This document shows, in pieces, positions 1,666-43,490 of a stretch of 64,000 bases of DNA; the stretch's first letter is position 1; every line of letters starts with the position of its first letter. The position numbers and the translations under genes were made by a program. The DNA is from Gammaproteobacteria bacterium (GTDB lineage Bacteria; Pseudomonadota; Gammaproteobacteria; CAJXQU01). The DNA lies in assembly GCA_965238175.1 (NCBI GenBank), contig CBDEGZ010000003.1, positions 1,152,001 through 1,216,000 of the forward strand, read 5' to 3'. A model generated the notes under the pieces. It searched no databases, was not told where the DNA came from, and saw nothing but the letters and a program-made list of their open reading frames with translations.

Positions 1666-2669
1666 AGCCTCATAACAAGTCAATTCCAAAGTCCTTTCCT
1701 GCATCATTTCACCGGTCAATTTACGGAACAACTCCTGAACAGAATCAGCAAGGGTTTATTTTGATTACTGTCCTGCTTTTAATCAGCTTGATCGCCTCTG
1801 TTGCTTATTTATCAAGTACCCATAGTGTTTTTAATGCCTCTCAAGCAGAGTCGAAAATTGATTCTCAGAAGATGCGTTATGCGGCGGAAACGGGTTTAGT
1901 CTTTGCGACGGCTGAGCTAGCAAAAGATCTGGATTGTACTGGATATACGATCACGCCGAATGGAACCTTTAATGGTTACCGTTACAGGGCAAGTTTATCG
2001 GCGACTTCTGGTTCTCCTGTCACGGTTAATGTTTCAATGGATCTTGGATCGGGTAATTCGCGTTCTTTTAGTCGGGAGGTTACTGTAACAAAAAATAATG
2101 AGACAGAAGTGGACTTGGAAGAAGATAGTTATTCTAATCGATCGGATGACAATCGAAACTATGGGGAAGATCAGGAACTCCACGTGAGAGCTCGGTTAGA
2201 TCGAATAACGTTCTTAAAATTCGATATGGGAAAAATCAATATCGATCCAGCAGCGATTATCGGGGCTGAGCTTAAGCTTTATCAAAAGAGTTCACCAGAG
2301 GCGAGTACGTTCAATATCCGTGTTTACAGAATCACAAAAAGATGGAAGGAAAGGGAAGTTACATATGACGATCGTTATAACAATAGAGCTTGGACCAAAA
2401 ATATGCTTGGTGTGATTACCGATGTTGATCCAACAGCAATAGATTCGGTTGAGATTGATAAAAATGTTGTGGATTGGAAGATATGGGATGTGACGTCTCT
2501 GGTGATAGATTGGTTAGATGGAACGTCTACTGATCGTGGTATGGCATTATCAAATACTGGAATCCGCACTAATAGTATTGAGTTCCTTAGCCGAGAGTCT
2601 TCAGATATTGCCAAACGGCCTAAGTTAGTTATAACTCATCAATGCGAGTGTGGGACAGCCGGTTGCTAG
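1662..2669 (+). CDS. PilX/GspK-like minor pilin with C-terminal DNRLRE/CBM96-like domain
   Basis: QQGFILITVLL lacks Glu+5, as in PilX/GspK; C-terminal EDSY..NYG..L.V..FLKFD..AELKLY..W.E..VT..W..WDVT.LV..W..RPKLVI pattern. Confidence 0.75.
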   Translation: MKPHNKSIPKSFPASFHRSIYGTTPEQNQQGFILITVLLLISLIASVAYLSSTHSVFNASQAESKIDSQKMRYAAETGLVFATAELAKDLDCTGYTITPNGTFNGYRYRASLSATSGSPVTVNVSMDLGSGNSRSFSREVTVTKNNETEVDLEEDSYSNRSDDNRNYGEDQELHVRARLDRITFLKFDMGKINIDPAAIIGAELKLYQKSSPEASTFNIRVYRITKRWKEREVTYDDRYNNRAWTKNMLGVITDVDPTAIDSVEIDKNVVDWKIWDVTSLVIDWLDGTSTDRGMALSNTGIRTNSIEFLSRESSDIAKRPKLVITHQCECGTAGC

Positions 2670-2710
2670 TTCTGAAACTGATCTTTGGTTTACCCAGACT
2701 AAAATTTAAC

Positions 2711-2811
2711 TAACCTGATGTGATGGTCTCCTCCCCCTTACGGCATGTAAGTGTCATGATTGAACCGTCATCAACACAATCAAAAGAGGAGAAGACCATC
2801 AAATCAGGTTA
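2711..2811 (+). mobile_element. Miniature IS110(IS1111)-derived element / left-end remnant forming a 19-bp terminal hairpin
   Basis: 2716-2798 is about 90% identical to the left end of the IS110 copies; taacctgatgtgatggtct / agaccatcaaatcaggtta pair at 18 of 19 positions. Confidence 0.85.
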
Positions 2812-2871
2812 AATAAAGAATTTGGTGTTTTTGCCGATAAAGTTATCAGATAAAAATATTTGGGATAGGAC

Positions 2872-3980
2872 ATGCTAGGGATAACCCGTAAGGGTCCAAT
2901 TGGATTAGATTTTGGTTCTGATCATTTGAAAATGGTACAGGCAGATTTTGTAAAAGGAAGTCCGGTGATCCGTTCTGCTATTATTTTGCCTTACCCCACG
3001 AACAAAAAAGAGCTATTTGAATCTCCTACAGATTTAAAAAAAATGGTTCGTAAAGCGCGCAGTATAGGTGGGTTTCAAGGTGCTCGTACAGTGGTGACAA
3101 TGCCTCCTGAAAAACTTCAATTTGTTTCGCTCGAATATAAATGTATGCCGTCAAAAGATCCTGACGAAGCGGTGATTGAGGCGATAAGAGAACGATTTGG
3201 TGATCAGATAAAAAGTTCAGTGATCGATTTTTACATATTCGCCCTGAACATAAAGATCAAATTGATCGCAGTGCACTCGCTGCGGTCGCACAAAAAGAAT
3301 CTGTCATTTCTTTCCTGGAGTCTATACGCAAGAGTGGATTAGAAGTTGATCGACTTGAAATTGGTCCGGTTGCGATTAATAGATTGATGGGCGCAATTAA
3401 TCCTAATGAGCATGACAAAATTAATCTAGTGATCAATTTCGGTCTATATAAATCTTATGCGACCGTTTTATGGGGCAGGCGCTTGTTGCTAGATCGTGAA
3501 TTATCATTTGGCTGTGCAACAGGTGCTACCGTTCTGTCTGAGGCACTGGAAGTATCAAAGCAAGAAGCAACAGAATTATTGGCTCGACATGGTATTAAGG
3601 TGGCAAATAAAGTCATCGTAGGTTCAGATTACGAAGAAGTAAGTATCGCGGAAACGGTGGCTGATATTTTAAAACCTGTACTTCAAGATTTTGCTCATGA
3701 GATTAAACGGCTGATGTTATATGTGGCCTCGAGAACGCGTGGACGTACAGTTAATGAATCGTATATGTTTGGTAATGTTCTCGAATGGTCTGGTGTAGAT
3801 AGAATTCTTTCTGAAATGACAGGAATAACGTTTAAAACAACGCAACCTTTCTACGGGTTTGCTACTTCTAAGCAGGCCGCGAAAATAAAGGATGTGTCTG
3901 AGTTACGTGGGATTGCTGTCGCGACCGGGCTTGCTTTGTTAGGGCTGGAAAACAACCAGAGGGCAAGCGGTGATGCATGA
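2872..3980 (+). pseudogene. pilM: PilM/MshI-like pilus assembly protein, split by a single-base frameshift (or sequencing error)
   Basis: N-terminus PIGLDFGSDHLKMVQ and C-terminus ..AVATGLAL; adding one T to the T5 run at 3228-3232 joins ORFs 2872-3342 and 3384-3980. Confidence 0.75.
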
Positions 3981-18007: not shown

Positions 18008-18718
18008 TGTAAGACATTCTTAGCTTTTGTAATTCTTATTTCTTTGTTAGGAGGTACTTGGTGATTGAATAAAAATCAGCCCGAGAAATAGGTTGAATTA
18101 CAACAGATATTGTCGATTTTGGTTGAGGTGACTAAGGTCACTAAAGAGGATGTACAGCTTAGTAGCAAGGTAACGGGTGTTTAGTATTTGCACAACGTGC
18201 AAAATTACATTGTGAAATTTCTGAACAGGTGTTAAAGCGCAATGTAGAACTAGGTTAGTAAGGTAACATTAAACGATCAACCAATCCGTATTAATGTAGG
18301 TGAGTATGAAGATGTGCTTAGCGAAATGCAGATCAAAATATGATCAATAAAAAGTGGTAATTTGGAAGAGATCAAAAATTATTTGATATCGTCGAGTGAC
18401 AAATCACATTATTCCAACACGAAGTAAATTGGTAATGAAAGAGTTTAAGAAATAATCCTTAGTTTCGCAGTCAAAAATCGACGAAACTCATCGTCAATCA
18501 CGGTGCGATCAAAAATTACGTTTTATGGGATGAGTCGATCGTATTTGTATGATCTGGCTGATGAGACAAAGCGACAGCTAATGCAAATTCCGGGTGTTGT
18601 TGGTGGTAGAGAGGTTGGGAGTTATGGTTTGAAGTTGATCCACACCTGGTCTTTATCTGAGCCTTTAGACATACAAAACAGGCCATTTTTTATAAAAGCA
18701 AAAGTATTAGTCACAATT
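18008..18718 (+). pseudogene. Possible decayed RND efflux (adaptor + AcrB-like) fragments
   Basis: Stop-riddled frames giving KTFLAFVILISLLGG..VEVTKVTKEDVQLSSKVTG and LYDLADETKRQLMQIPGVVG. Confidence 0.35.
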
Positions 18719-18813
18719 TAACTTAACCTGATGTGATGGTCTCCTCCCCCTAACGGCATCTAGGTGCCATGATTGAACTGACATACACACAATCAAAAGA
18801 GGAGAAGACCAAA

Positions 18814-19827
18814 ATGAAGACTACAACAATCGGGTTAGACATAGCAAAAAACGTATTTCATGCTGTCTGCTGTAATCAACAAGGGCGTATAATCAAAAAG
18901 AAAATGTTAAAGCGAGCGCAGGTACTCTCCTTTTTTCAATCTCAACCTCCTTGTTTAGTCGCAATAGAATCTTGTGCAACGTCACAGTATTGGGCCCGAG
19001 CGATACAACAACAGGGACATCAGGTGAAATTACTACCACCTCAGCATGTTAACGCATTTCTAATCGGCAATAAGAATGATTATAACGATGCCTTGGCCAT
19101 CGCCGTTGCTGCGAAACAACCTCATTTAAAAAGTGTGGGCATTAAATCAGTTGAGCAACAAGACAACCAGGCACAACATAAAGCAAGAGACTTAGCGGTC
19201 AGACAAAGAACCGCATTATGTAACCAAATGAGAGCGCTTGTTGCAGAATATGGCATTAGCCTTCGTCCCGGCCTAAATACCCTACGTCAATCTATCCCGT
19301 TGCTATTAAGTGATGAGAACGAACGGTTGTCCGTTACTTTCAAAAGGATACTGCGCCAGCTAAAGGAACAATGGCAATCACTTGATGCCTGTATTGCGAC
19401 ATTTGACCAATTGATCATTCAATCGGCAAAAAACAATGCGATTTGCCAACGCTTACAAACTATTCCAGGGTTTGGGCCGATGGTCTCGAGCGCGTATTTT
19501 AATGAAGTGGGAAACGGCGCTCATTATCACAAAGGGCGCGATGTGTCCGCCTCATTAGGACTTGTTCCACGACAGTACAGTAGTGGTGGTAAAGAGGTGC
19601 TACTGGGGATCAGTAAACGCGGCAATAAATACCTTCGTTGTTTGTTAATTCTAGGCGCGAAGGCCGTGGTATCAAGAGCCAAAACGAAAGGCGATAAACT
19701 GAGTCAATGGATTAATCGTTTAGTTGAGACGCGGGGGCATAATCGAGCGTGTGTGGCGTATGCCAACAAAATGGCAAGAATGGCCTGGGCTATAACGGTT
19801 TCTGGTGATGACTACTCACCGGCCTAA
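18814..19827 (+). CDS. IS110 DEDD recombinase/transposase
   Basis: IGLDIAK, AIES, KNDYNDA, TIPGFG, GLVPRQYSSGG, ISKRGNKYLR; start placed after RBS gaggag. Confidence 0.96.
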   Translation: MKTTTIGLDIAKNVFHAVCCNQQGRIIKKKMLKRAQVLSFFQSQPPCLVAIESCATSQYWARAIQQQGHQVKLLPPQHVNAFLIGNKNDYNDALAIAVAAKQPHLKSVGIKSVEQQDNQAQHKARDLAVRQRTALCNQMRALVAEYGISLRPGLNTLRQSIPLLLSDENERLSVTFKRILRQLKEQWQSLDACIATFDQLIIQSAKNNAICQRLQTIPGFGPMVSSAYFNEVGNGAHYHKGRDVSASLGLVPRQYSSGGKEVLLGISKRGNKYLRCLLILGAKAVVSRAKTKGDKLSQWINRLVETRGHNRACVAYANKMARMAWAITVSGDDYSPA

Positions 19828-19869
19828 ATAGAGAGAACAAATCATTTCAACGAATTGCGAAGGTAAAAC

Positions 19870-20045
19870 TAAAGATGGCATAACAGGTCAAACCAGCCTA
19901 TTGAAAACCTGTCGAGCTCAGGGGTAACTAATACCGATAACCTGATAAGGAAAATAGGCGCGTAATACATCCAGGTCAGAAGTTGAAAACTTCATTGAAG
20001 GCCGTATATATGACAGCAATCCTGTCCCTGTTATCTGAATGTTTT
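19870..20045 (+). ncRNA. Putative bridge/seekRNA in the IS110 3' non-coding region (also in copies 2 and 3)
   Basis: Stem gcctatt/aataggc encloses CGAGCTCAG and ATAACCTGA (target matches); ACATC and TATATATGA match the circle junction; RNA ends approximate. Confidence 0.75.
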
Positions 20046-20083
20046 ATCTTGCAATACGGGAGGAGACCATATATGAGATCGGT

Positions 20084-20983
20084 TTAAGCCACGGTTGCTA
20101 ATGCCCGTTTTAAGTAATTAAATTCATCGCCAGACAAGTTCAAAGACGGCTTATTCTCTTTCAGACAATAAGCGATCAATCCACCGATAAGATTAAGCAT
20201 AAAACCATGTACAGAGCGGTGTCTGGAATGTTCTATCTGAGTAATGTTCTTCAACTGGTCATTAATGGTTTCAATAATAAAACGTCTGCTCAGCATGGCT
20301 CTGTCCCAGAGCGATGTAGCTTTTGCCTTCATGTTTTTTCGAACATTTGTCACCAACTCCACGCCTTTATCAAACAATTCGCTCGATAAGGCTTGGCTGA
20401 TATAGCCCTTATCCCCGTAAAGTTTGCCACTCATCGCCTTGCACAGCTCGGGAACAGGCTGACGGTCATCGATATTTCCCGGGGTGATTTTGGCTGCCAG
20501 GATATCCCCCTGATGATTGGTGATAAGGTGTAACTTGAAACCATAAAACCAACCCATTGTGCCTCGACCTCGCTGGGCGATGTCTTTGAAAACACGGTGG
20601 CGTGGAATACGGAGGTTGTGGCACACTTTTAAGGCGGTTGAATCAACAAACGCAACACCTGTGGGTTTCCCTTTAAGATAAGAAAAGTAGCTACATAAAG
20701 GAACGAGCACTGTCGGCATCACCTCCAGAAACCGCGTGTAGCTTAGCATCTGTGGAAAATCCTCGGCATAGAATTGAGCGATAAACCCTTTGTAGTAGTT
20801 CTTGAAATCGCGATGGTTGGAGTGATGAAACAGGATGATGATAGTCATGATTTCGCTGGCTTGCATTCGCCCAACTCGACGGCGTTTGCGTTGCCCATCG
20901 GTCAGTAATTGTTGTTCCCACAACGGTATGAAGTGCTGACAGAAGTCATCGACATCACAAAAGATTTCAACTAGTTTATCCAT
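20084..20983 (-). CDS. IS982 family transposase
   Basis: IFCDVDDFC, FVDST, GWFYGFKLHL, GDKGYIS, IETINDQLKN..QIEHSRHRS. Confidence 0.95.
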   Translation of the reverse strand: MDKLVEIFCDVDDFCQHFIPLWEQQLLTDGQRKRRRVGRMQASEIMTIIILFHHSNHRDFKNYYKGFIAQFYAEDFPQMLSYTRFLEVMPTVLVPLCSYFSYLKGKPTGVAFVDSTALKVCHNLRIPRHRVFKDIAQRGRGTMGWFYGFKLHLITNHQGDILAAKITPGNIDDRQPVPELCKAMSGKLYGDKGYISQALSSELFDKGVELVTNVRKNMKAKATSLWDRAMLSRRFIIETINDQLKNITQIEHSRHRSVHGFMLNLIGGLIAYCLKENKPSLNLSGDEFNYLKRALATVA

Positions 20984-21106
20984 TGGCTTGTTCTCCTTTT
21001 TTTTCAATTGTTTGGTCACAATTGATCTGATCGGGGGACAAGCCGTTAGTTCATTTCCTTAAGCCGAGTTGGGGTTAACTTAATAGAAATTGATAAAATC
21101 ACAGGC

Positions 21107-21142
21107 AAAAAAAAGCCTGGCAATAAATGCCAGGCTTTTTTA
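21107..21142. terminator. Intrinsic terminator of the cold-shock gene (bidirectional)
   Basis: aaaaaaagcctggca-ataaa-tgccaggcttttt. Confidence 0.85.
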
Positions 21143-21159
21143 TGTAATTGAAGGAAGTT

Positions 21160-21363
21160 TTATACTTTCGTCACATTACTAGCTTGTGGACCTTTGGGAC
21201 CATCTTCAACGTCGTAAGAAACTTCGTCGCCTTCACCAAGGCTTTTGAAACCGTCGCCTTGAATTGCAGAAAAATGTACGAATACATCTGTGCTGCCATC
21301 AGCTGGTGAAATAAAGCCGAAGCCTTTTGAATCGTTGAACCATTTAACACTGCCAGTAGCCAT
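21160..21363 (-). CDS. Cold-shock protein (CspA family)
   Basis: [29 protein letters not shown]. Confidence 0.96.
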
Positions 21364-23712: not shown

Positions 23713-24938
23713 TGTAGAAGTTTAGACCCAATCTGACACATCACTAAATCAAGCGGAGCGTAGCGACGCTTGATTTAGTGAGAGTTACCCGCTTTGATGT
23801 AACTGCAACGTAAACATCAAAACACAAAGAGGTAACTCTCATGATTCATACTAATGACAAAGTTATAAAACATAAAGTTGGTCTACTCAATCTCGCTGAA
23901 GAACTCGGCAATGTCTCAAAAGCCTGCAAGATGATGGGTTTGTCCAGAGATACATTTTATCGCTACAAAGAAGCGGCTGATGAAGGCGGTGTAGAAGCCT
24001 TGTTTGATCGTAATCGGCGTACCCCAAATCTTAAAAACAGAATCGACCCGGCTATTGAAACCGTTGTGCTCGAGTATGCACTGGAAGAGCCCGCACATGG
24101 TCAAACGCGCACCAGTAACGAGCTGCGCAAACGGGGAACATTTGTCTCACCCAGTGGCGTTCGTTGTATCTGGCTTCGTCATGGTCTTGCTTGCTTTAAA
24201 GATCGCCTGAAGGCATTGTCTGATAAGGTAGCTGGTGAAGGCTTGATCCTCACTGAGTCTCAAGTCGCGGCGATGGAACGCAAGAAAGACGACGATGAGG
24301 CTTGTGGCGAGATAGAGACGGCACACCCTGGTTATCTTGGCTCGCAAGATACTTACTATGTCGGTACTTTCAAAGGCATTGGTCGGGTTTATCAACAAAC
24401 GTTTGTTGATACTTACAGCAAGGTCGCTCACGCGAAACTGTACCCGACTAAAACACCGATTACGGCAGCTGACATGCTCAATGACCGCGTCCTCCCATTC
24501 TACGAAGAACAACGTTTGCCTATGTTGCGCATTTTGACAGATAGAGGGACGGAGTATTGTGGGCGAGCTGACCAGCATGATTATCAGCTTTATATGGCGT
24601 TGAACAATATCGAACACACCAAAACCAAGGTCAAATCACCTCAGACGAATGGTATTTGTGAGCGATTCCATAAGACGATCCTCAATGAGTTTTATCAAGT
24701 CGCTTTGCGTAAGAAAATTTACCAATCGATTGATGAACTGCAACTCGACCTTGACGAATGGTTGCTCAAATACAATACTCAACGAACTCACCAAGGCAAA
24801 ATGTGCTGCGGGAGGACGCCGATGGAAACACTCATCGACGGACAAGCTATCTGGAAGGAAAAGTTTGTGAATTAAACTTAACCTGACAGTCGGTTACTGA
24901 TAATTGGGTAACTGTCAGATCAAATCTGAATTTCTACA
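23713..24938 (+). mobile_element. IS481 family element, copy 1 (1226 bp)
   Basis: TGTAGAA...TTCTACA ends, 7-bp TSD GGTTATG. Confidence 0.95.
23841..24875 (+). CDS. IS481 family transposase
   Basis: HTH N-terminus, rve core SQDT..TDRGTEY..PQTNGICERF. Confidence 0.96.
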   Translation: MIHTNDKVIKHKVGLLNLAEELGNVSKACKMMGLSRDTFYRYKEAADEGGVEALFDRNRRTPNLKNRIDPAIETVVLEYALEEPAHGQTRTSNELRKRGTFVSPSGVRCIWLRHGLACFKDRLKALSDKVAGEGLILTESQVAAMERKKDDDEACGEIETAHPGYLGSQDTYYVGTFKGIGRVYQQTFVDTYSKVAHAKLYPTKTPITAADMLNDRVLPFYEEQRLPMLRILTDRGTEYCGRADQHDYQLYMALNNIEHTKTKVKSPQTNGICERFHKTILNEFYQVALRKKIYQSIDELQLDLDEWLLKYNTQRTHQGKMCCGRTPMETLIDGQAIWKEKFVN

Positions 24939-26287: not shown

Positions 26288-27632
26288 TATATGGTCTCCT
26301 CCCGTATTGCAAGATAAAACATTCAGATAACAGGGACAGGATTGCTGTCATATATACGGCCTTCAATGAAGTTTTCAACTTCTGACCTGGATGTATTACG
26401 CGCCTATTTTCCTTATCAGGTTATCGGTATTAGTTACCCCTGAGCTCGACAGGTTTTCAATAGGCTGGTTTGACCTGTTATGCCATCTTTAGTTTTACCT
26501 TCGCAATTCGTTGAAATGATTTGTTCTCTCTATTTAGGCCGGTGAGTAGTCATCACCAGAAACCGTTATAGCCCAGGCCATTCTTGCCATTTTGTTGGCA
26601 TACGCCACACACGCTCGATTATGCCCCCGCGTCTCAACTAAACGATTAATCCATTGACTCAGTTTATCGCCTTTCGTTTTGGCTCTTGATACCACGGCCT
26701 TCGCGCCTAGAATTAACAAACAACGAAGGTATTTATTGCCGCGTTTACTGATCCCCAGTAGCACCTCTTTACCACCACTACTGTACTGTCGTGGAACAAG
26801 TCCTAATGAGGCGGACACATCGCGCCCTTTGTGATAATGAGCGCCGTTTCCCACTTCATTAAAATACGCGCTCGAGACCATCGGCCCAAACCCTGGAATA
26901 GTTTGTAAGCGTTGGCAAATCGCATTGTTTTTTGCCGATTGAATGATCAATTGGTCAAATGTCGCAATACAGGCATCAAGTGATTGCCATTGTTCCTTTA
27001 GCTGGCGCAGTATCCTTTTGAAAGTAACGGACAACCGTTCGTTCTCATCACTTAATAGCAACGGGATAGATTGACGTAGGGTATTTAGGCCGGGACGAAG
27101 GCTAATGCCATATTCTGCAACAAGCGCTCTCATTTGGTTACATAATGCGGTTCTTTGTCTGACCGCTAAGTCTCTTGCTTTATGTTGTGCCTGGTTGTCT
27201 TGTTGCTCAACTGATTTAATGCCCACACTTTTTAAATGAGGTTGTTTCGCAGCAACGGCGATGGCCAAGGCATCGTTATAATCATTCTTATTGCCGATTA
27301 GAAATGCGTTAACATGCTGAGGTGGTAGTAATTTCACCTGATGTCCCTGTTGTTGTATCGCTCGGGCCCAATACTGTGACGTTGCACAAGATTCTATTGC
27401 GACTAAACAAGGAGGTTGAGATTGAAAAAAGGAGAGTACCTGCGCTCGCTTTAACATTTTCTTTTTGATTATACGCCCTTGTTGATTACAGCAGACAGCA
27501 TGAAATACGTTTTTTGCTATGTCTAACCCGATTGTTGTAGTCTTCATTTTGGTCTTCTCCTCTTTTGATTGTGTGTATGTCAGTTCAATCATGGCACCTA
27601 GATGCCGTTAGGGGGAGGAGACCATCACATCA
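26288..27632 (-). mobile_element. IS110 (IS1111) element, copy 2
   Basis: Same 1345-bp element; reconstructed target TAACC|TGAACTCAGGATAAG. Confidence 0.95.
26534..27547 (-). CDS. IS110 transposase
   Basis: Protein identical to copy 1. Confidence 0.96.
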   Translation of the reverse strand: MKTTTIGLDIAKNVFHAVCCNQQGRIIKKKMLKRAQVLSFFQSQPPCLVAIESCATSQYWARAIQQQGHQVKLLPPQHVNAFLIGNKNDYNDALAIAVAAKQPHLKSVGIKSVEQQDNQAQHKARDLAVRQRTALCNQMRALVAEYGISLRPGLNTLRQSIPLLLSDENERLSVTFKRILRQLKEQWQSLDACIATFDQLIIQSAKNNAICQRLQTIPGFGPMVSSAYFNEVGNGAHYHKGRDVSASLGLVPRQYSSGGKEVLLGISKRGNKYLRCLLILGAKAVVSRAKTKGDKLSQWINRLVETRGHNRACVAYANKMARMAWAITVSGDDYSPA

Positions 27633-30258: not shown

Positions 30259-31484
30259 TGTAGAAATTCAGATTTGATCTGACAGTTACCCAATTATCAG
30301 TAACCGACTGTCAGGTTAAGTTTAATTCACAAACTTTTCCTTCCAGATAGCTTGTCCGTCGATGAGTGTTTCCATCGGCGTCCTCCCGCAGCACATTTTG
30401 CCTTGGTGAGTTCGTTGAGTATTGTATTTGAGCAACCATTCGTCAAGGTCGAGTTGCAGTTCATCAATCGATTGGTAAATTTTCTTACGCAAAGCGACTT
30501 GATAAAACTCATTGAGGATCGTCTTATGGAATCGCTCACAAATACCATTCGTCTGAGGTGATTTGACCTTGGTTTTGGTGTGTTCGATATTGTTCAACGC
30601 CATATAAAGCTGATAATCATGCTGGTCAGCTCGCCCACAATACTCCGTCCCTCTATCTGTCAAAATGCGCAACATAGGCAAACGTTGTTGTTCGTAGAAT
30701 GGGAGGACGCGGTCATTGAGCATGTCAGCTGCCGTAATCGGTATTTTAGTCGGGTACAGTTTCGCGTGAGCGACCTTGCTGTAAGTATCAACAAACGTTT
30801 GTTGATAAACCCGACCAATGCCTTTGAAAGTACCGACATAGTAAGTATCTTGCGAGCCAAGATAACCAGGGTGTGCCGTCTCTATCTCGCCACAAGCCTC
30901 ATCGTCGTCTTTCTTGCGTTCCATCGCCGCGACTTGAGACTCAGTGAGGATCAAGCCTTCACCAGCTACCTTATCAGACAATGCCTTCAGGCGATCTTTA
31001 AAGCAAGCAAGACCATGACGAAGCCAGATACAACGAACGCCACTGGGTGAGACAAATGTTCCCCGTTTGCGCAGCTCGTTACTGGTGCGCGTTTGACCAT
31101 GTGCGGGCTCTTCCAGTGCATACTCGAGCACAACGGTTTCAATAGCCGGGTCGATTCTGTTTTTAAGATTTGGGGTACGCCGATTACGATCAAACAAGGC
31201 TTCTACACCGCCTTCATCAGCCGCTTCTTTGTAGCGATAAAATGTATCTCTGGACAAACCCATCATCTTGCAGGCTTTTGAGACATTGCCGAGTTCTTCA
31301 GCGAGATTGAGTAGACCAACTTTATGTTTTATAACTTTGTCATTAGTATGAATCATGAGAGTTACCTCTTTGTGTTTTGATGTTTACGTTGCAGTTACAT
31401 CAAAGCGGGTAACTCTCACTAAATCAAGCGTCGCTACGCTCCGCTTGATTTAGTGATGTGTCAGATTGGGTCTAAACTTCTACA
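30259..31484 (-). mobile_element. IS481 element, copy 2
   Basis: Same ends as copy 1; TSD AATACAG. Confidence 0.95.
30322..31356 (-). CDS. IS481 transposase
   Basis: Two amino-acid differences from copy 1. Confidence 0.96.
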   Translation of the reverse strand: MIHTNDKVIKHKVGLLNLAEELGNVSKACKMMGLSRDTFYRYKEAADEGGVEALFDRNRRTPNLKNRIDPAIETVVLEYALEEPAHGQTRTSNELRKRGTFVSPSGVRCIWLRHGLACFKDRLKALSDKVAGEGLILTESQVAAMERKKDDDEACGEIETAHPGYLGSQDTYYVGTFKGIGRVYQQTFVDTYSKVAHAKLYPTKIPITAADMLNDRVLPFYEQQRLPMLRILTDRGTEYCGRADQHDYQLYMALNNIEHTKTKVKSPQTNGICERFHKTILNEFYQVALRKKIYQSIDELQLDLDEWLLKYNTQRTHQGKMCCGRTPMETLIDGQAIWKEKFVN

Positions 31485-37791: not shown

Positions 37792-39017
37792 TGTAGAAAT
37801 TCAGACTTGATCTGACAGTTACCCCTTTTTCTGTAACTGACTGTCAGGTTAAGTTTAGTTCACAAACTTTTCCTTCCAGATAGCTTGTCCGTCGATGAGT
37901 GTTTCCATCGGCGTCCTCCCGCAGCACATTTTGCCTTGGTGAGTTCGTTGAGTATTGTATTTGAGCAACCATTCGTCAAGGTCGAGTTGCAGTTCATCAA
38001 TCGATTGGTAAATTTTCTTACGCAAAGCGACTTGATAAAACTCATTGAGGATCGTCTTATGGAATCGCTCACAAATACCATTCGTCTGAGGTGATTTGAC
38101 CTTGGTTTTGGTGTGTTCGATATTGTTCAACGCCATATAAAGCTGATAATCATGCTGGTCAGCTCGCCCACAATACTCCGTCCCTCTATCTGTCAAAATG
38201 CGCAACATAGGCAAACGTTGTTGTTCGTAGAATGGGAGGACGCGGTCATTGAGCATGTCAGCTGCCGTAATCGGTGTTTTAGTCGGGTACAGTTTCGCGT
38301 GAGCGACCTTGCTGTAAGTATCAACAAACGTTTGTTGATAAACCCGACCAATGCCTTTGAAAGTACCGACATAGTAAGTATCTTGCGAGCCAAGATAACC
38401 AGGGTGTGCCGTCTCTATCTCGCCACAAGCCTCATCGTCGTCTTTCTTGCGTTCCATCGCCGCGACTTGAGACTCAGTGAGGATCAAGCCTTCACCAGCT
38501 ACCTTATCAGACAATGCCTTCAGGCGATCTTTAAAGCAAGCAAGACCATGACGAAGCCAGATACAACGAACGCCACTGGGTGAGACAAATGTTCCCCGTT
38601 TGCGCAGCTCGTTACTGGTGCGCGTTTGACCATGTGCGGGCTCTTCCAGTGCATACTCGAGCACAACGGTTTCAATAGCCGGGTCGATTCTGTTTTTAAG
38701 ATTTGGGGTACGCCGATTACGATCAAACAAGGCTTCTACACCGCCTTCATCAGCCGCTTCTTTGTAGCGATAAAATGTATCTCTGGACAAACCCATCATC
38801 TTGCAGGCTTTTGAGACATTGCCGAGTTCTTCAGCGAGATTGAGTAGACCAACTTTATGTTTTATAACTTTGTCATTAGTATGAATCATGAGAGTTACCT
38901 CTTTGTGTTTTGATGTTTACGTTGCAGTTACATCAAAGCGGGTAACTCTCACTAAATCAAGCGTCGCTACGCTCCGCTTGATTTAGTGATGTGTCAGATT
39001 GGGTCTAAACTTCTACA
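37792..39017 (-). mobile_element. IS481 element, copy 3 (divergent right end)
   Basis: TSD GATAAAC; 7 substitutions in the terminal 70 bp relative to copy 2. Confidence 0.95.
37855..38889 (-). CDS. IS481 transposase
   Basis: Near-identical to copies 1 and 2. Confidence 0.96.
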   Translation of the reverse strand: MIHTNDKVIKHKVGLLNLAEELGNVSKACKMMGLSRDTFYRYKEAADEGGVEALFDRNRRTPNLKNRIDPAIETVVLEYALEEPAHGQTRTSNELRKRGTFVSPSGVRCIWLRHGLACFKDRLKALSDKVAGEGLILTESQVAAMERKKDDDEACGEIETAHPGYLGSQDTYYVGTFKGIGRVYQQTFVDTYSKVAHAKLYPTKTPITAADMLNDRVLPFYEQQRLPMLRILTDRGTEYCGRADQHDYQLYMALNNIEHTKTKVKSPQTNGICERFHKTILNEFYQVALRKKIYQSIDELQLDLDEWLLKYNTQRTHQGKMCCGRTPMETLIDGQAIWKEKFVN

Positions 39018-42145: not shown

Positions 42146-43490
42146 TGATGTGATGGTCTCCTCCCCCTAACGGCATCTAGGTGCCATGATTGAACTGACA
42201 TACACACAATCAAAAGAGGAGAAGACCAAAATGAAGACTACAACAATCGGGTTAGACATAGCAAAAAACGTATTTCATGCTGTCTGCTGTAATCAACAAG
42301 GGCGTATAATCAAAAAGAAAATGTTAAAGCGAGCGCAGGTACTCTCCTTTTTTCAATCTCAACCTCCTTGTTTAGTCGCAATAGAATCTTGTGCAACGTC
42401 ACAGTATTGGGCCCGAGCGATACAACAACAGGGACATCAGGTGAAATTACTACCACCTCAGCATGTTAACGCATTTCTAATCGGCAATAAGAATGATTAT
42501 AACGATGCCTTGGCCATCGCCGTTGCTGCGAAACAACCTCATTTAAAAAGTGTGGGCATTAAATCAGTTGAGCAACAAGACAACCAGGCACAACATAAAG
42601 CAAGAGACTTAGCGGTCAGACAAAGAACCGCATTATGTAACCAAATGAGAGCGCTTGTTGCAGAATATGGCATTAGCCTTCGTCCCGGCCTAAATACCCT
42701 ACGTCAATCTATCCCGTTGCTATTAAGTGATGAGAACGAACGGTTGTCCGTTACTTTCAAAAGGATACTGCGCCAGCTAAAGGAACAATGGCAATCACTT
42801 GATGCCTGTATTGCGACATTTGACCAATTGATCATTCAATCGGCAAAAAACAATGCGATTTGCCAACGCTTACAAACTATTCCAGGGTTTGGGCCGATGG
42901 TCTCGAGCGCGTATTTTAATGAAGTGGGAAACGGCGCTCATTATCACAAAGGGCGCGATGTGTCCGCCTCATTAGGACTTGTTCCACGACAGTACAGTAG
43001 TGGTGGTAAAGAGGTGCTACTGGGGATCAGTAAACGCGGCAATAAATACCTTCGTTGTTTGTTAATTCTAGGCGCGAAGGCCGTGGTATCAAGAGCCAAA
43101 ACGAAAGGCGATAAACTGAGTCAATGGATTAATCGTTTAGTTGAGACGCGGGGGCATAATCGAGCGTGTGTGGCGTATGCCAACAAAATGGCAAGAATGG
43201 CCTGGGCTATAACGGTTTCTGGTGATGACTACTCACCGGCCTAAATAGAGAGAACAAATCATTTCAACGAATTGCGAAGGTAAAACTAAAGATGGCATAA
43301 CAGGTCAAACCAGCCTATTGAAAACCTGTCGAGCTCAGGGGTAACTAATACCGATAACCTGATAAGGAAAATAGGCGCGTAATACATCCAGGTCAGAAGT
43401 TGAAAACTTCATTGAAGGCCGTATATATGACAGCAATCCTGTCCCTGTTATCTGAATGTTTTATCTTGCAATACGGGAGGAGACCATATA
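42146..43490 (+). mobile_element. IS110 (IS1111) element, copy 3
   Basis: Same 1345-bp element; reconstructed target AAACC|TGAACTCGGGATAAG. Confidence 0.95.
42231..43244 (+). CDS. IS110 transposase
   Basis: Protein identical to copy 1. Confidence 0.96.
   Translation: MKTTTIGLDIAKNVFHAVCCNQQGRIIKKKMLKRAQVLSFFQSQPPCLVAIESCATSQYWARAIQQQGHQVKLLPPQHVNAFLIGNKNDYNDALAIAVAAKQPHLKSVGIKSVEQQDNQAQHKARDLAVRQRTALCNQMRALVAEYGISLRPGLNTLRQSIPLLLSDENERLSVTFKRILRQLKEQWQSLDACIATFDQLIIQSAKNNAICQRLQTIPGFGPMVSSAYFNEVGNGAHYHKGRDVSASLGLVPRQYSSGGKEVLLGISKRGNKYLRCLLILGAKAVVSRAKTKGDKLSQWINRLVETRGHNRACVAYANKMARMAWAITVSGDDYSPA

Follow-up and report, generated by a model that had tools for sequence, protein, structure and literature searches.

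IS1111-type element within an IS982-family element

The DNA analysed here is a stretch of 64,000 nucleotides from a gammaproteobacterium (assembly GCA_965238175.1, contig CBDEGZ010000003.1, positions 1,152,001 to 1,216,000), referred to as the window and corresponding to G000:C3:1152001-1216000. At 18719-21082 the window contains a composite of two mobile elements, in which an IS1111-type insertion sequence (IS) of the IS110 family lies inside one terminal inverted repeat (TIR) of an IS982-family element. The subject of this report is the inner element, the sites that it occupies, and the guide RNA predicted to select them. Positions without a prefix are those of the window, and the composite is made up as follows.

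18719-18725: target-site duplication of the IS982 element, left copy, TAACTTA, whose last two bases, TA, are the first two bases of the IS1111-type target
18726-18728, + strand: ACC, the 3-bp tip of the IS982 TIR, cut off from the rest by the insert; unoccupied TIRs run ACCTGA... without interruption
18729-20073, + strand: IS1111-type IS (IS110 family), 1345 bp including one copy of the TG core (18729-18730); 25 genomic copies at 99.9-100% identity
20074-20088: bases 4-18 of the TIR, TGAGATCGGTTTAAG
20074-21075, - strand: rest of the IS982-family element (1005 bp counting the ACC tip)
20084-21019, - strand: IS982 transposase open reading frame (ORF)
21058-21075: opposite IS982 TIR, CTTAAGCCGAGTTGGGGT; reverse complement ACCCCAACTCGGCTTAAG
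21076-21082: right copy of the IS982 target-site duplication, TAACTTA, the same 7-mer as on the left

The insert begins TGATGTG and finishes CCATATA, and its deletion in silico yields ACCTGAGATCGGTTTAAG, which agrees with the opposite end, ACCCCAACTCGGCTTAAG, at 13 of 18 positions. Because TGA is repeated, the cut could lie at more than one place within it; comparison with relatives identifies TG as the common core. The host element has the properties of the IS982 family, namely a DDE transposase (NF033520 at 279.4 bits, cut-off 130; PF13612, E = 5.5e-78), a length of about 1 kb (1005 bp), 18-bp TIRs alike at 13/18 positions, and a 7-bp duplication. The transposase of the insert matches NF033542 (IS110-family RNA-guided transposase) at 302.6 bits (cut-off 140) and contains the IS110 N-terminal domain PF01548 (E = 3.6e-16) and the C-terminal domain PF02371 (E = 6.4e-20), these being assignments at the level of whole domains. 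Because the IS982 duplication brackets the entire composite, the IS110-type element entered an IS982 element that was already in place. The initial annotation had described this layout (the insert at 18729-20073, the restored TIR, the outer TAACTTA, and the sites of two further copies in the window), all of which is seen in the sequence, and its family labels and its order of insertion agree with the profile matches and with the position of the duplication. The host element is of a type designated here IS982-A, and a second, 100% identical IS982-A elsewhere in the genome carries the same insertion.

The features of the inner element outside its predicted RNA are these.

18729-18735, + strand: 7-nt left terminal extension TGATGTG (core TG plus ATGTG); the combination of 7 bp on the left and 3 bp on the right is the IS1111-family rule in PMC11187229
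18736-18748, + strand: left subterminal inverted repeat ATGGTCTCCTCCC, kept in relatives
18814-19827, + strand: gene of the DEDD transposase, or bridge recombinase (tnp), 337 aa from the probable start codon ATG at 18814, which follows GAGGAG
20049-20054, + strand: -35-like hexamer TTGCAA, which on circularisation would lie 17 nt upstream of a junction-spanning TATGAT; putative promoter function
20058-20070, + strand: right subterminal inverted repeat GGGAGGAGACCAT; the 3-nt extension ATA comes next (20071-20073)

In PMC11187229 the IS1111 group is defined by subterminal inverted repeats of 11-13 bp with extensions of 7 bp on the left and 3 bp on the right, a longer non-coding region 3' of tnp, a transposase of 330-350 aa, and the motif GL-P----S(t)G; junction promoters are also reported there for the family. 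The present element has the corresponding transposase domains, perfect 13-bp subterminal repeats with the expected extensions, 246 nt of non-coding DNA downstream of tnp compared with 85 nt upstream, and a 337-aa product with the C-terminal motif GLVPRQYSSG. The longest tnp ORF begins at 18769, but alignments with relatives start at residue 1-2 of the 337-aa form. Insertion is site- and orientation-specific and without target duplication, since all 25 copies stand in one orientation at AACC/TG (the slash marks the insertion point), and in the predicted seekRNA, or bridge RNA, the guide complementary to the top strand precedes, on its 5' side, the guide complementary to the bottom strand. Taken together these features place the element in the IS1111 group.

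Genomic copies and their target sites

A search of the whole genome recovers 25 copies, of which 24 are full-length and one is cut by a contig start, together with six short or diverged fragments. Two of the copies lie in the window in addition to the one in the composite.

26288-27632, - strand: second window copy, with TTAACC before and TGAACTCAGGATAAG after the insertion point; a solo TIR-like 18-mer scoring 17/18, with no partner TIR within 1.5 kb
42146-43490, + strand: third window copy, with GAAACC before and TGAACTCGGGATAAG after the insertion point; a solo 18-mer scoring 18/18, and the sole copy with a left flank of AAACC

The left flank ends in AACC in 25 of 25 copies and in TAACC in 24 of 25, and the right flank begins with TGA in all 24 copies in which it is readable, a uniformity far beyond chance. 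Alignment of these flanks with the TIR set places 16 of the 24 copies with a readable right flank in IS982-type TIRs at a score of at least 16/18, in full IS982 elements, in miniature inverted-repeat transposable elements (MITEs) of about 205 bp, or in solo ends. Two copies occupy the two IS982-A elements; one occupies an IS982 of type B (TIR ACCTGAACTCGGGATAAG, transposase 271 bits); six are in ~205-bp MITEs whose TIR is of type B; for three the site is a 38-bp MITE end that an IS481-like element has cut short; and several are in solo TIR-like ends. The remaining eight are not in full TIR-like 18-mers: one lies in a 45-bp palindrome of two TIR tips, three in unique DNA, three beside an IS481-like element whose left end is 5 nt away, and one 57 bp inside that IS481-like element. 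What is common to all copies is a motif of about 13 nt, TAACC-TG-A(G/A)(C/A/T)TCG, which is shorter than the 18-bp TIR. The initial annotation had placed all copies in IS982-TIR-like targets and had derived a longer consensus from the three window copies. That description holds for two thirds of the copies, including the second and third in the window, and gives way in the other third to the short motif, in which, moreover, the leading TA belongs to the IS982 duplication.

The shared flanks invite the question of whether the boundaries have been set wrongly, such that the flanks form part of a larger composite, or whether IS982 inserted beside an existing IS110-type element. Two sets of three copies do share long identical right flanks. 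Nevertheless, uninterrupted ACCTGA... TIRs exist, right flanks diverge beyond 18 bp between target classes, and relatives with very different flanks end at the same bases; a second arrival of IS982 is contradicted by the TAACTTA copies that bracket the composite and by the ACC tip that lies outside the insert. On this boundary, flank and duplication evidence both variants are rejected as extremely improbable.

Several observations concern the elements that surround these copies. The most abundant IS of the genome is an IS481-family element of 1226 bp (NF033577, 279 bits), with 57 full-length copies at 99.2-100% identity, ends that start TGTAGAA, and 7-bp AT-rich duplications; three copies are in the window (23713-24938, 30259-31484 and 37792-39017) and 54 more in G000:C3. 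At G000:C3:1050196-1054153 a sandwich is formed by an IS1111-type copy (+), the 38-bp MITE end, an IS481-like element (-), GTTCA (5 nt) and a second IS1111-type copy (-). The copies that share IS481-like right flanks all differ in their left flanks, and several lack IS481 duplications. In three ~205-bp MITEs with both ends identified (G000:C3:123565-125115, 1222125-1223677 and 2912243-2913795) one end only is occupied, and none was seen with both; the free end is sometimes an equally good target, for example TAACC followed by TGAACTCGG.

Only two copies of the IS1111-type element are variants, at one base each (G000:C3:747420-748764 and 393963-395307), the changes being A to G at the equivalent of 19999, in the 3' part of the donor-loop region, and C to T at the equivalent of 19452, in tnp. 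Solo fragments of the left end of the element are also present (83 bp at 90% identity, 73 bp at 84%, and two inverted 40-bp pieces), as is a 79%-identical relic of a related element (window 2716-2798; G000:C3:2897431-2897503, 1393274-1393339 and 2357911-2358383). When an orthologous empty site was sought in six other genomes of the genus, the best left-flank match was only 77% identical. In four sequencing runs, available as contigs only, no contig joins across the insertion, and one run has a depth of ~37.8 over the element compared with ~2 on the flanks.

The predicted bridge RNA and its covariation with targets

The guide RNA of IS1111-type elements sits in the region downstream of tnp, and within it the top-strand-complementary segment is placed 5' of the one complementary to the bottom strand (location, PMC11187229 and PMC11208160; order, PMC11187229). 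The corresponding region of the present element contains the following predicted features.

19883-20025, + strand: structured bridge/seekRNA region, with an outer stem of ACAGG (19883-19887) and CCTGT (20021-20025)
19913-19922, + strand: target-loop 5' guide (T), CGAGCTCAGG, the complement of top-strand CCTGAGCTCG; covaries with the right flank in relatives
19923-19935, + strand: hairpin GGTA-ACTAA-TACC between the two target guides (helix 4; 4/4 pairs with compensatory changes)
19938-19945, + strand: target-loop 3' guide (B), TAACCTGA, identical to the target top strand (left flank, core and A)
19967-19971, + strand: donor-loop 5' arm ACATC, the complement of left-end GATGT; covaries with the left end in relatives
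20006-20013, + strand: donor-loop 3' arm ATATATGA, identical to the circle junction of right and left ends (..ATATA plus TGA); ATATACG in relatives with a CG core

Written as RNA, the T guide CGAGCUCAGG would pair with the top strand and the B guide UAACCUGA with the bottom strand, and the two jointly specify TAACC-TG-AGCTCG. Both are enclosed by the stem GCCUAUU/AAUAGGC. The T-guide complement, CCTGAGCTCG, agrees with both TIR variants at 9 of 10 positions. In the donor loop, ACAUC can pair with the left end of the element itself, and AUAUAUGA equals the joined junction of its right and left ends. A conserved AACCTG at 19906-19911 was considered as a guide and ruled out; it is taken to be structural because it is invariant in relatives that have other targets.

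The assignment of these guides was examined in related elements. A scan of genome contigs gave 80 loci, 35 of which had both subterminal repeats and readable flanks and, with the present element, made up the 36 analysed; 1060 mismatched pairings of element and flank served as the control. In all 36 only the 2-nt core, TG or CG, is common to the element ends and the flanks, and the terminal bases of the relatives are exactly alike; in six the left and right junctions do not have the same first core base. The T region, located 160-168 nt from the element end, matches its own right flank over at least 9 nt in 16 of 36 elements and in none of the 1060 mismatched pairs, and the B region, 136-143 nt from the end, matches its own left flank over at least 7 nt in 26 of 36 compared with 88 of 1060. 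Close relatives, with 73-77% protein identity, that have other targets (L021, L024, L025 and L026) carry correspondingly different guides. For L021 the target reads ...GATC before and TGAGGTTA after the insertion point, and the guides are UAACCUCA and GAUCUGA; for L025 and L026 the right side of the target is TGGGTATA and the guide UAUACCCA. The donor loop varies in the same manner, its 5' arm with the left end (ACAUC with ATGTG or ATGTA; UCAUC with ATGAG or ATGAA) and its 3' arm with the core (AUAUAUG for TG, AUAUACG for CG).

The fold is conserved as well. For 35 distinct sequences RNAalifold predicts a consensus of 31 pairs, and compensatory changes are seen in 20; 97.5% of cells are paired, a figure that drops to 29-37% if the partners are displaced by 1-3 columns. 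For four of five measures, no shuffle out of 500 attained the observed score. A two-loop bridge RNA is thus established at the computational level, and its expression and processing in the cell are predicted from sequence.

Two groups of relatives are of separate interest. L021, from a Halioglobus metagenome-assembled genome (MAG; locus 2418-3755, 77% protein identity), is reprogrammed to a site that reads ...CCAGATC before and TGAGGTTAAAA after the insertion point, about 45 bp from a GTAAGCG motif and adjoining an ORF whose product, judged by eye, looks like an IS66-family transposase. Many relatives of ~52-55% identity (L083, L084, L087, L090, L098, L040, L069 and L086) sit in sites resembling repetitive extragenic palindromic (REP) sequences, GTAGG(T/G) followed across the insertion point by CGGAT(T/A)AG; in several of them the first core base is unequal at the left and right junctions (TG and CG).

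Guide match, IS982 ends and the consequences of insertion

Occupancy in this genome depends on the match to the guides. Sites with an exact TG core, grouped by the number of mismatches to the 13-mer TAACCTGAGCTCG, are occupied as follows.

0 mismatches: 0/1
1 mismatch: 9/12
2 mismatches: 8/41
3 mismatches: 5/336
4 mismatches: 1/2138

The decrease is significant from one to two mismatches (p = 0.0016) and from two to three (p = 9e-6), and one 13-nt address accounts for the location of 23 of the 25 copies. The left half of the address appears strict and the right half tolerant, since TAACC is intact in all but one of the occupied sites. The site without a mismatch is at G000:C3 ~393937-393962, on the opposite strand and 27 bp from an occupied site (copy 393963-395307), with which it shares the 45-bp palindrome of two TIR tips. 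In a separate census every genomic 18-mer, with IS copies removed, was scored against four TIR variants, giving 32 sites of at least 16/18. Those with TG at positions 4-5 are occupied in 16 of 24 cases (15/20 with a TA flank, 1/4 without), whereas those with CC, TC, TA or TT at these positions are occupied in none of eight (Fisher p = 0.002). Among sites with TAACC intact and at most two mismatches, classified by eye, 14 of 21 of TIR type are occupied compared with 2 of 12 others (p = 0.01).

The specified 13-mer consists of the TA that closes an IS982-family duplication and bases 1-11 of an IS982-type TIR (ACCTGARMTCG). The duplications seen are TAACTTA, TAGTTA, TACTTA, TACATA and TAAATA, and nearly all TIR-like sites of the census have a TA flank. 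Because the leading TA of the motif belongs to the duplication of the IS982 element or MITE and not to the TIR, the address can be described as an IS982 insertion scar plus the tip of a TIR. The same left guide is present in elements from Colwellia, Pseudoalteromonas, Paraglaciecola, a sister species and metagenomes, where the right guides correspond to the local variants of the TIR. The element of a Colwellia MAG (L022) lies in TGAGATCGGTTTAAG, has a T guide perfect for TGAGATCG, and has a flank equal to the IS982-A end of the present genome over 15 nt; that of Pseudoalteromonas (L047) lies within the TIR of an IS982 that is 1014 bp long, has the duplication TACATA and encodes a transposase of 260 bits; that of Paraglaciecola (L027) is in a 240-bp MITE with the duplication TAAATA; and in the sister species (G001) the T guide is perfect for TGAATTCGG and the flank is TGAATTCGGGATAAG. 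A counter-example is provided by Shewanella frigidimarina (L023), where the flank is not TIR-like. Metagenome contigs, scanned with a pattern for the B-guide region and not for the flank, gave 12 loci; the readable left flanks are TAACC in 7/7 and the readable right flanks start with TGA in 5/5, the latter agreeing with the TIR consensus at positions 11-18, by eye, at 8, 7, 6, 6 and 4 of 8. Among the seven genomes of the order and family, the element was found in the present genome and, as a single fragment at a contig end, in one sister genome. The insertion into IS982-type ends described in the initial annotation extends to relatives in other genera.

An account in which the link to IS982 is incidental, the 13-nt motif being the target and IS982-type TIRs merely its commonest carriers with no evolved dependence, would fit the eight of 24 copies outside full TIR-like sequences, the success of the motif alone in predicting occupancy, and the Shewanella frigidimarina site. 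It is more difficult to reconcile with the recurrence of one left guide together with TIR-tuned right guides (TGAGATC, TGAACTC, TGAATTC) in at least four genera and in metagenomes, in IS982, MITE and solo TIRs, or with the higher occupancy of TIR-type sites than of equally matched non-TIR sites, and it is considered unlikely. Survivorship offers another explanation, according to which insertions occur at many motif-like sites and only those in neutral DNA, such as ISs and MITEs, persist, so that the enrichment reflects selection. The lower occupancy of sites with one or two mismatches in unique DNA, compared with TIR-type sites of equal mismatch, would be expected if this were so. However, occupancy follows guide base-pairing over four orders of magnitude in site number, and TIRs that differ only at the TG core, which should be equally neutral, are those occupied in 0/8 cases. 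Survivorship is judged less probable still.

The reading that we prefer, with a probability of roughly 0.85, is that the insert is an active or recently active, RNA-guided IS of the IS1111 group whose guides direct it mainly into IS982-type TIRs. A number of points weigh against it. The sole perfect 13/13 site in the genome is unoccupied, as are five TA-flanked TIRs of the TG type, and a single mismatch separates the guide from each TIR variant that is occupied (TGAACTCG and TGAGATCG). The excess at TIR-type sites goes beyond what the 13-mer explains and may reflect an additional preference or selection against insertion into unique DNA. Nor are the copies all independent: three share an identical right flank of the 38-bp MITE end and IS481-like element, and three others a flank of TGAAC and an IS481-like end; recombination between IS copies has evidently reshuffled flanks, so that there were fewer independent insertions than copies. 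In this element the match of the donor 5' arm is limited to 5 nt. A scan of 18600-21200 at E up to 1 matched no Rfam family, the only hits being weak terminator-like hairpins near 21106-21187. Finally, circle formation and the expression and processing of the RNA are steps that we infer.

The preferred reading, direction by the guides mainly into IS982-type TIRs, would involve the following steps. The element would excise as a circle with abutted ends, and the joined ends would create a junction promoter, TTGCAA-17 nt-TATGAT. The donor loop would pair with the element's joined ends and the target loop with both target strands, and recombination at the TG core would give insertion in one orientation without a duplication. 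Since the 13-mer is TA plus TIR bases 1-11, landing would be mainly 3 bp inside the TIRs of IS982, of derived MITEs and of solo ends, with occasional landing at chance look-alike sites. The genome has five full-length IS982 transposase genes. Three of the elements, both of type A and the one of type B, are interrupted at one TIR, and the two uninterrupted full-length elements have ACCTC or ACCCC ends. With 1345 bp of inserted DNA between the 3-bp tip and the remainder of the TIR, this end should no longer be cleaved correctly, and it is plausible that the insertion immobilises the IS982 copy concerned. Both IS982-A copies keep proper duplications around the composite; they may have been hit separately, or the composite may have moved as a unit.

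Targeting of the ends of other elements has precedent. IS4321 and IS5075, of the IS1111 family, reportedly target the TIRs of Tn21-family transposons. The present element resembles them in being IS1111-type, in its subterminal inverted repeats, and in its one-orientation insertion inside the TIR of another element, but its target is the ~18-bp TIR of IS982-family elements and MITEs. The plasmid collection contains no relative of at least 60% identity, the best being ~46%. Because its transposase is at most 46% identical to plasmid-borne relatives, hits that were not checked for identity with IS4321 or IS5075, the element does not appear to belong to the plasmid-borne lineages of the IS4321/IS5075 type, and the difference in TIR target points the same way. 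One plasmid-borne IS110-family locus, L101 of the Enterobacter hormaechei plasmid NZ_CP058173.1 (3923-5270), has the subterminal repeat ATGGTCGCCTCCC; an IS5 cuts its 3' non-coding region and the right end is missing, which makes it unusable for comparison.

The core of IS621, a member of the IS110 group, is CT. Like the RNA predicted here, that of IS621 has two loops that pair with target and donor around a shared 2-nt core, but it is located in the left end of an element with only a very short subterminal repeat, whereas the present element has its RNA in the right end and a TG core (PMC11208160 for IS621). A closer likeness is found in ISEc11, ISKpn4, ISPst6 and ISPa11, which, according to PMC11187229, have a non-coding region 3' of tnp, 7- and 3-bp extensions, and seekRNAs in which the top-strand-complementary segment lies 5' of the bottom-strand one and the target matches overlap. 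Their targets differ, being a short linear site, attC sites and REP sequences, and their seekRNA was shown experimentally, whereas here it is predicted from covariation. The founding member, IS1111 of Coxiella burnetii, also lands in a repeated non-autonomous mobile element, 20 of its 21 copies being associated with the MITE QMITE2, but as described in PMC5896051 the insertion site there is a GTAG REP palindrome within the MITE and not a terminal repeat, with no parent IS family. Literature searches, judged by their listings and with ISfinder and the 2024 supplementary target tables outside their scope, found no paper describing a pairing of IS1111-type elements with IS982. What appears to be new is the IS982-type TIR as a target; the RNA-guided mechanism and the habit of targeting the repeats of other elements are already known.

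The right-guide versions seen, TGAGATC, TGAACTC, TGAATTC and TGAGCTC, raise the tentative and somewhat doubtful possibility that the clade is a dedicated hyperparasite of IS982, its right guide co-evolving with TIR variants and its insertions acting as a brake on the spread of IS982 and MITEs, from which a change of the TG core would offer escape. If so, insertion 3 bp inside a TIR would disable that end and impose a genome-level brake on both. For annotation, such insertions explain IS982 and MITE ends that seem 3 bp short beside an IS110-family gene. The element is a natural example of bridge/seekRNA programming, in which the guides of relatives are rewritten to follow variants of the end of another transposon. 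IS982-family TIRs and MITEs join Tn21 TIRs, attC sites, REP sequences and the Coxiella MITE among the landing pads of IS1111-type elements, and they provide a testable case in which one IS may limit another.

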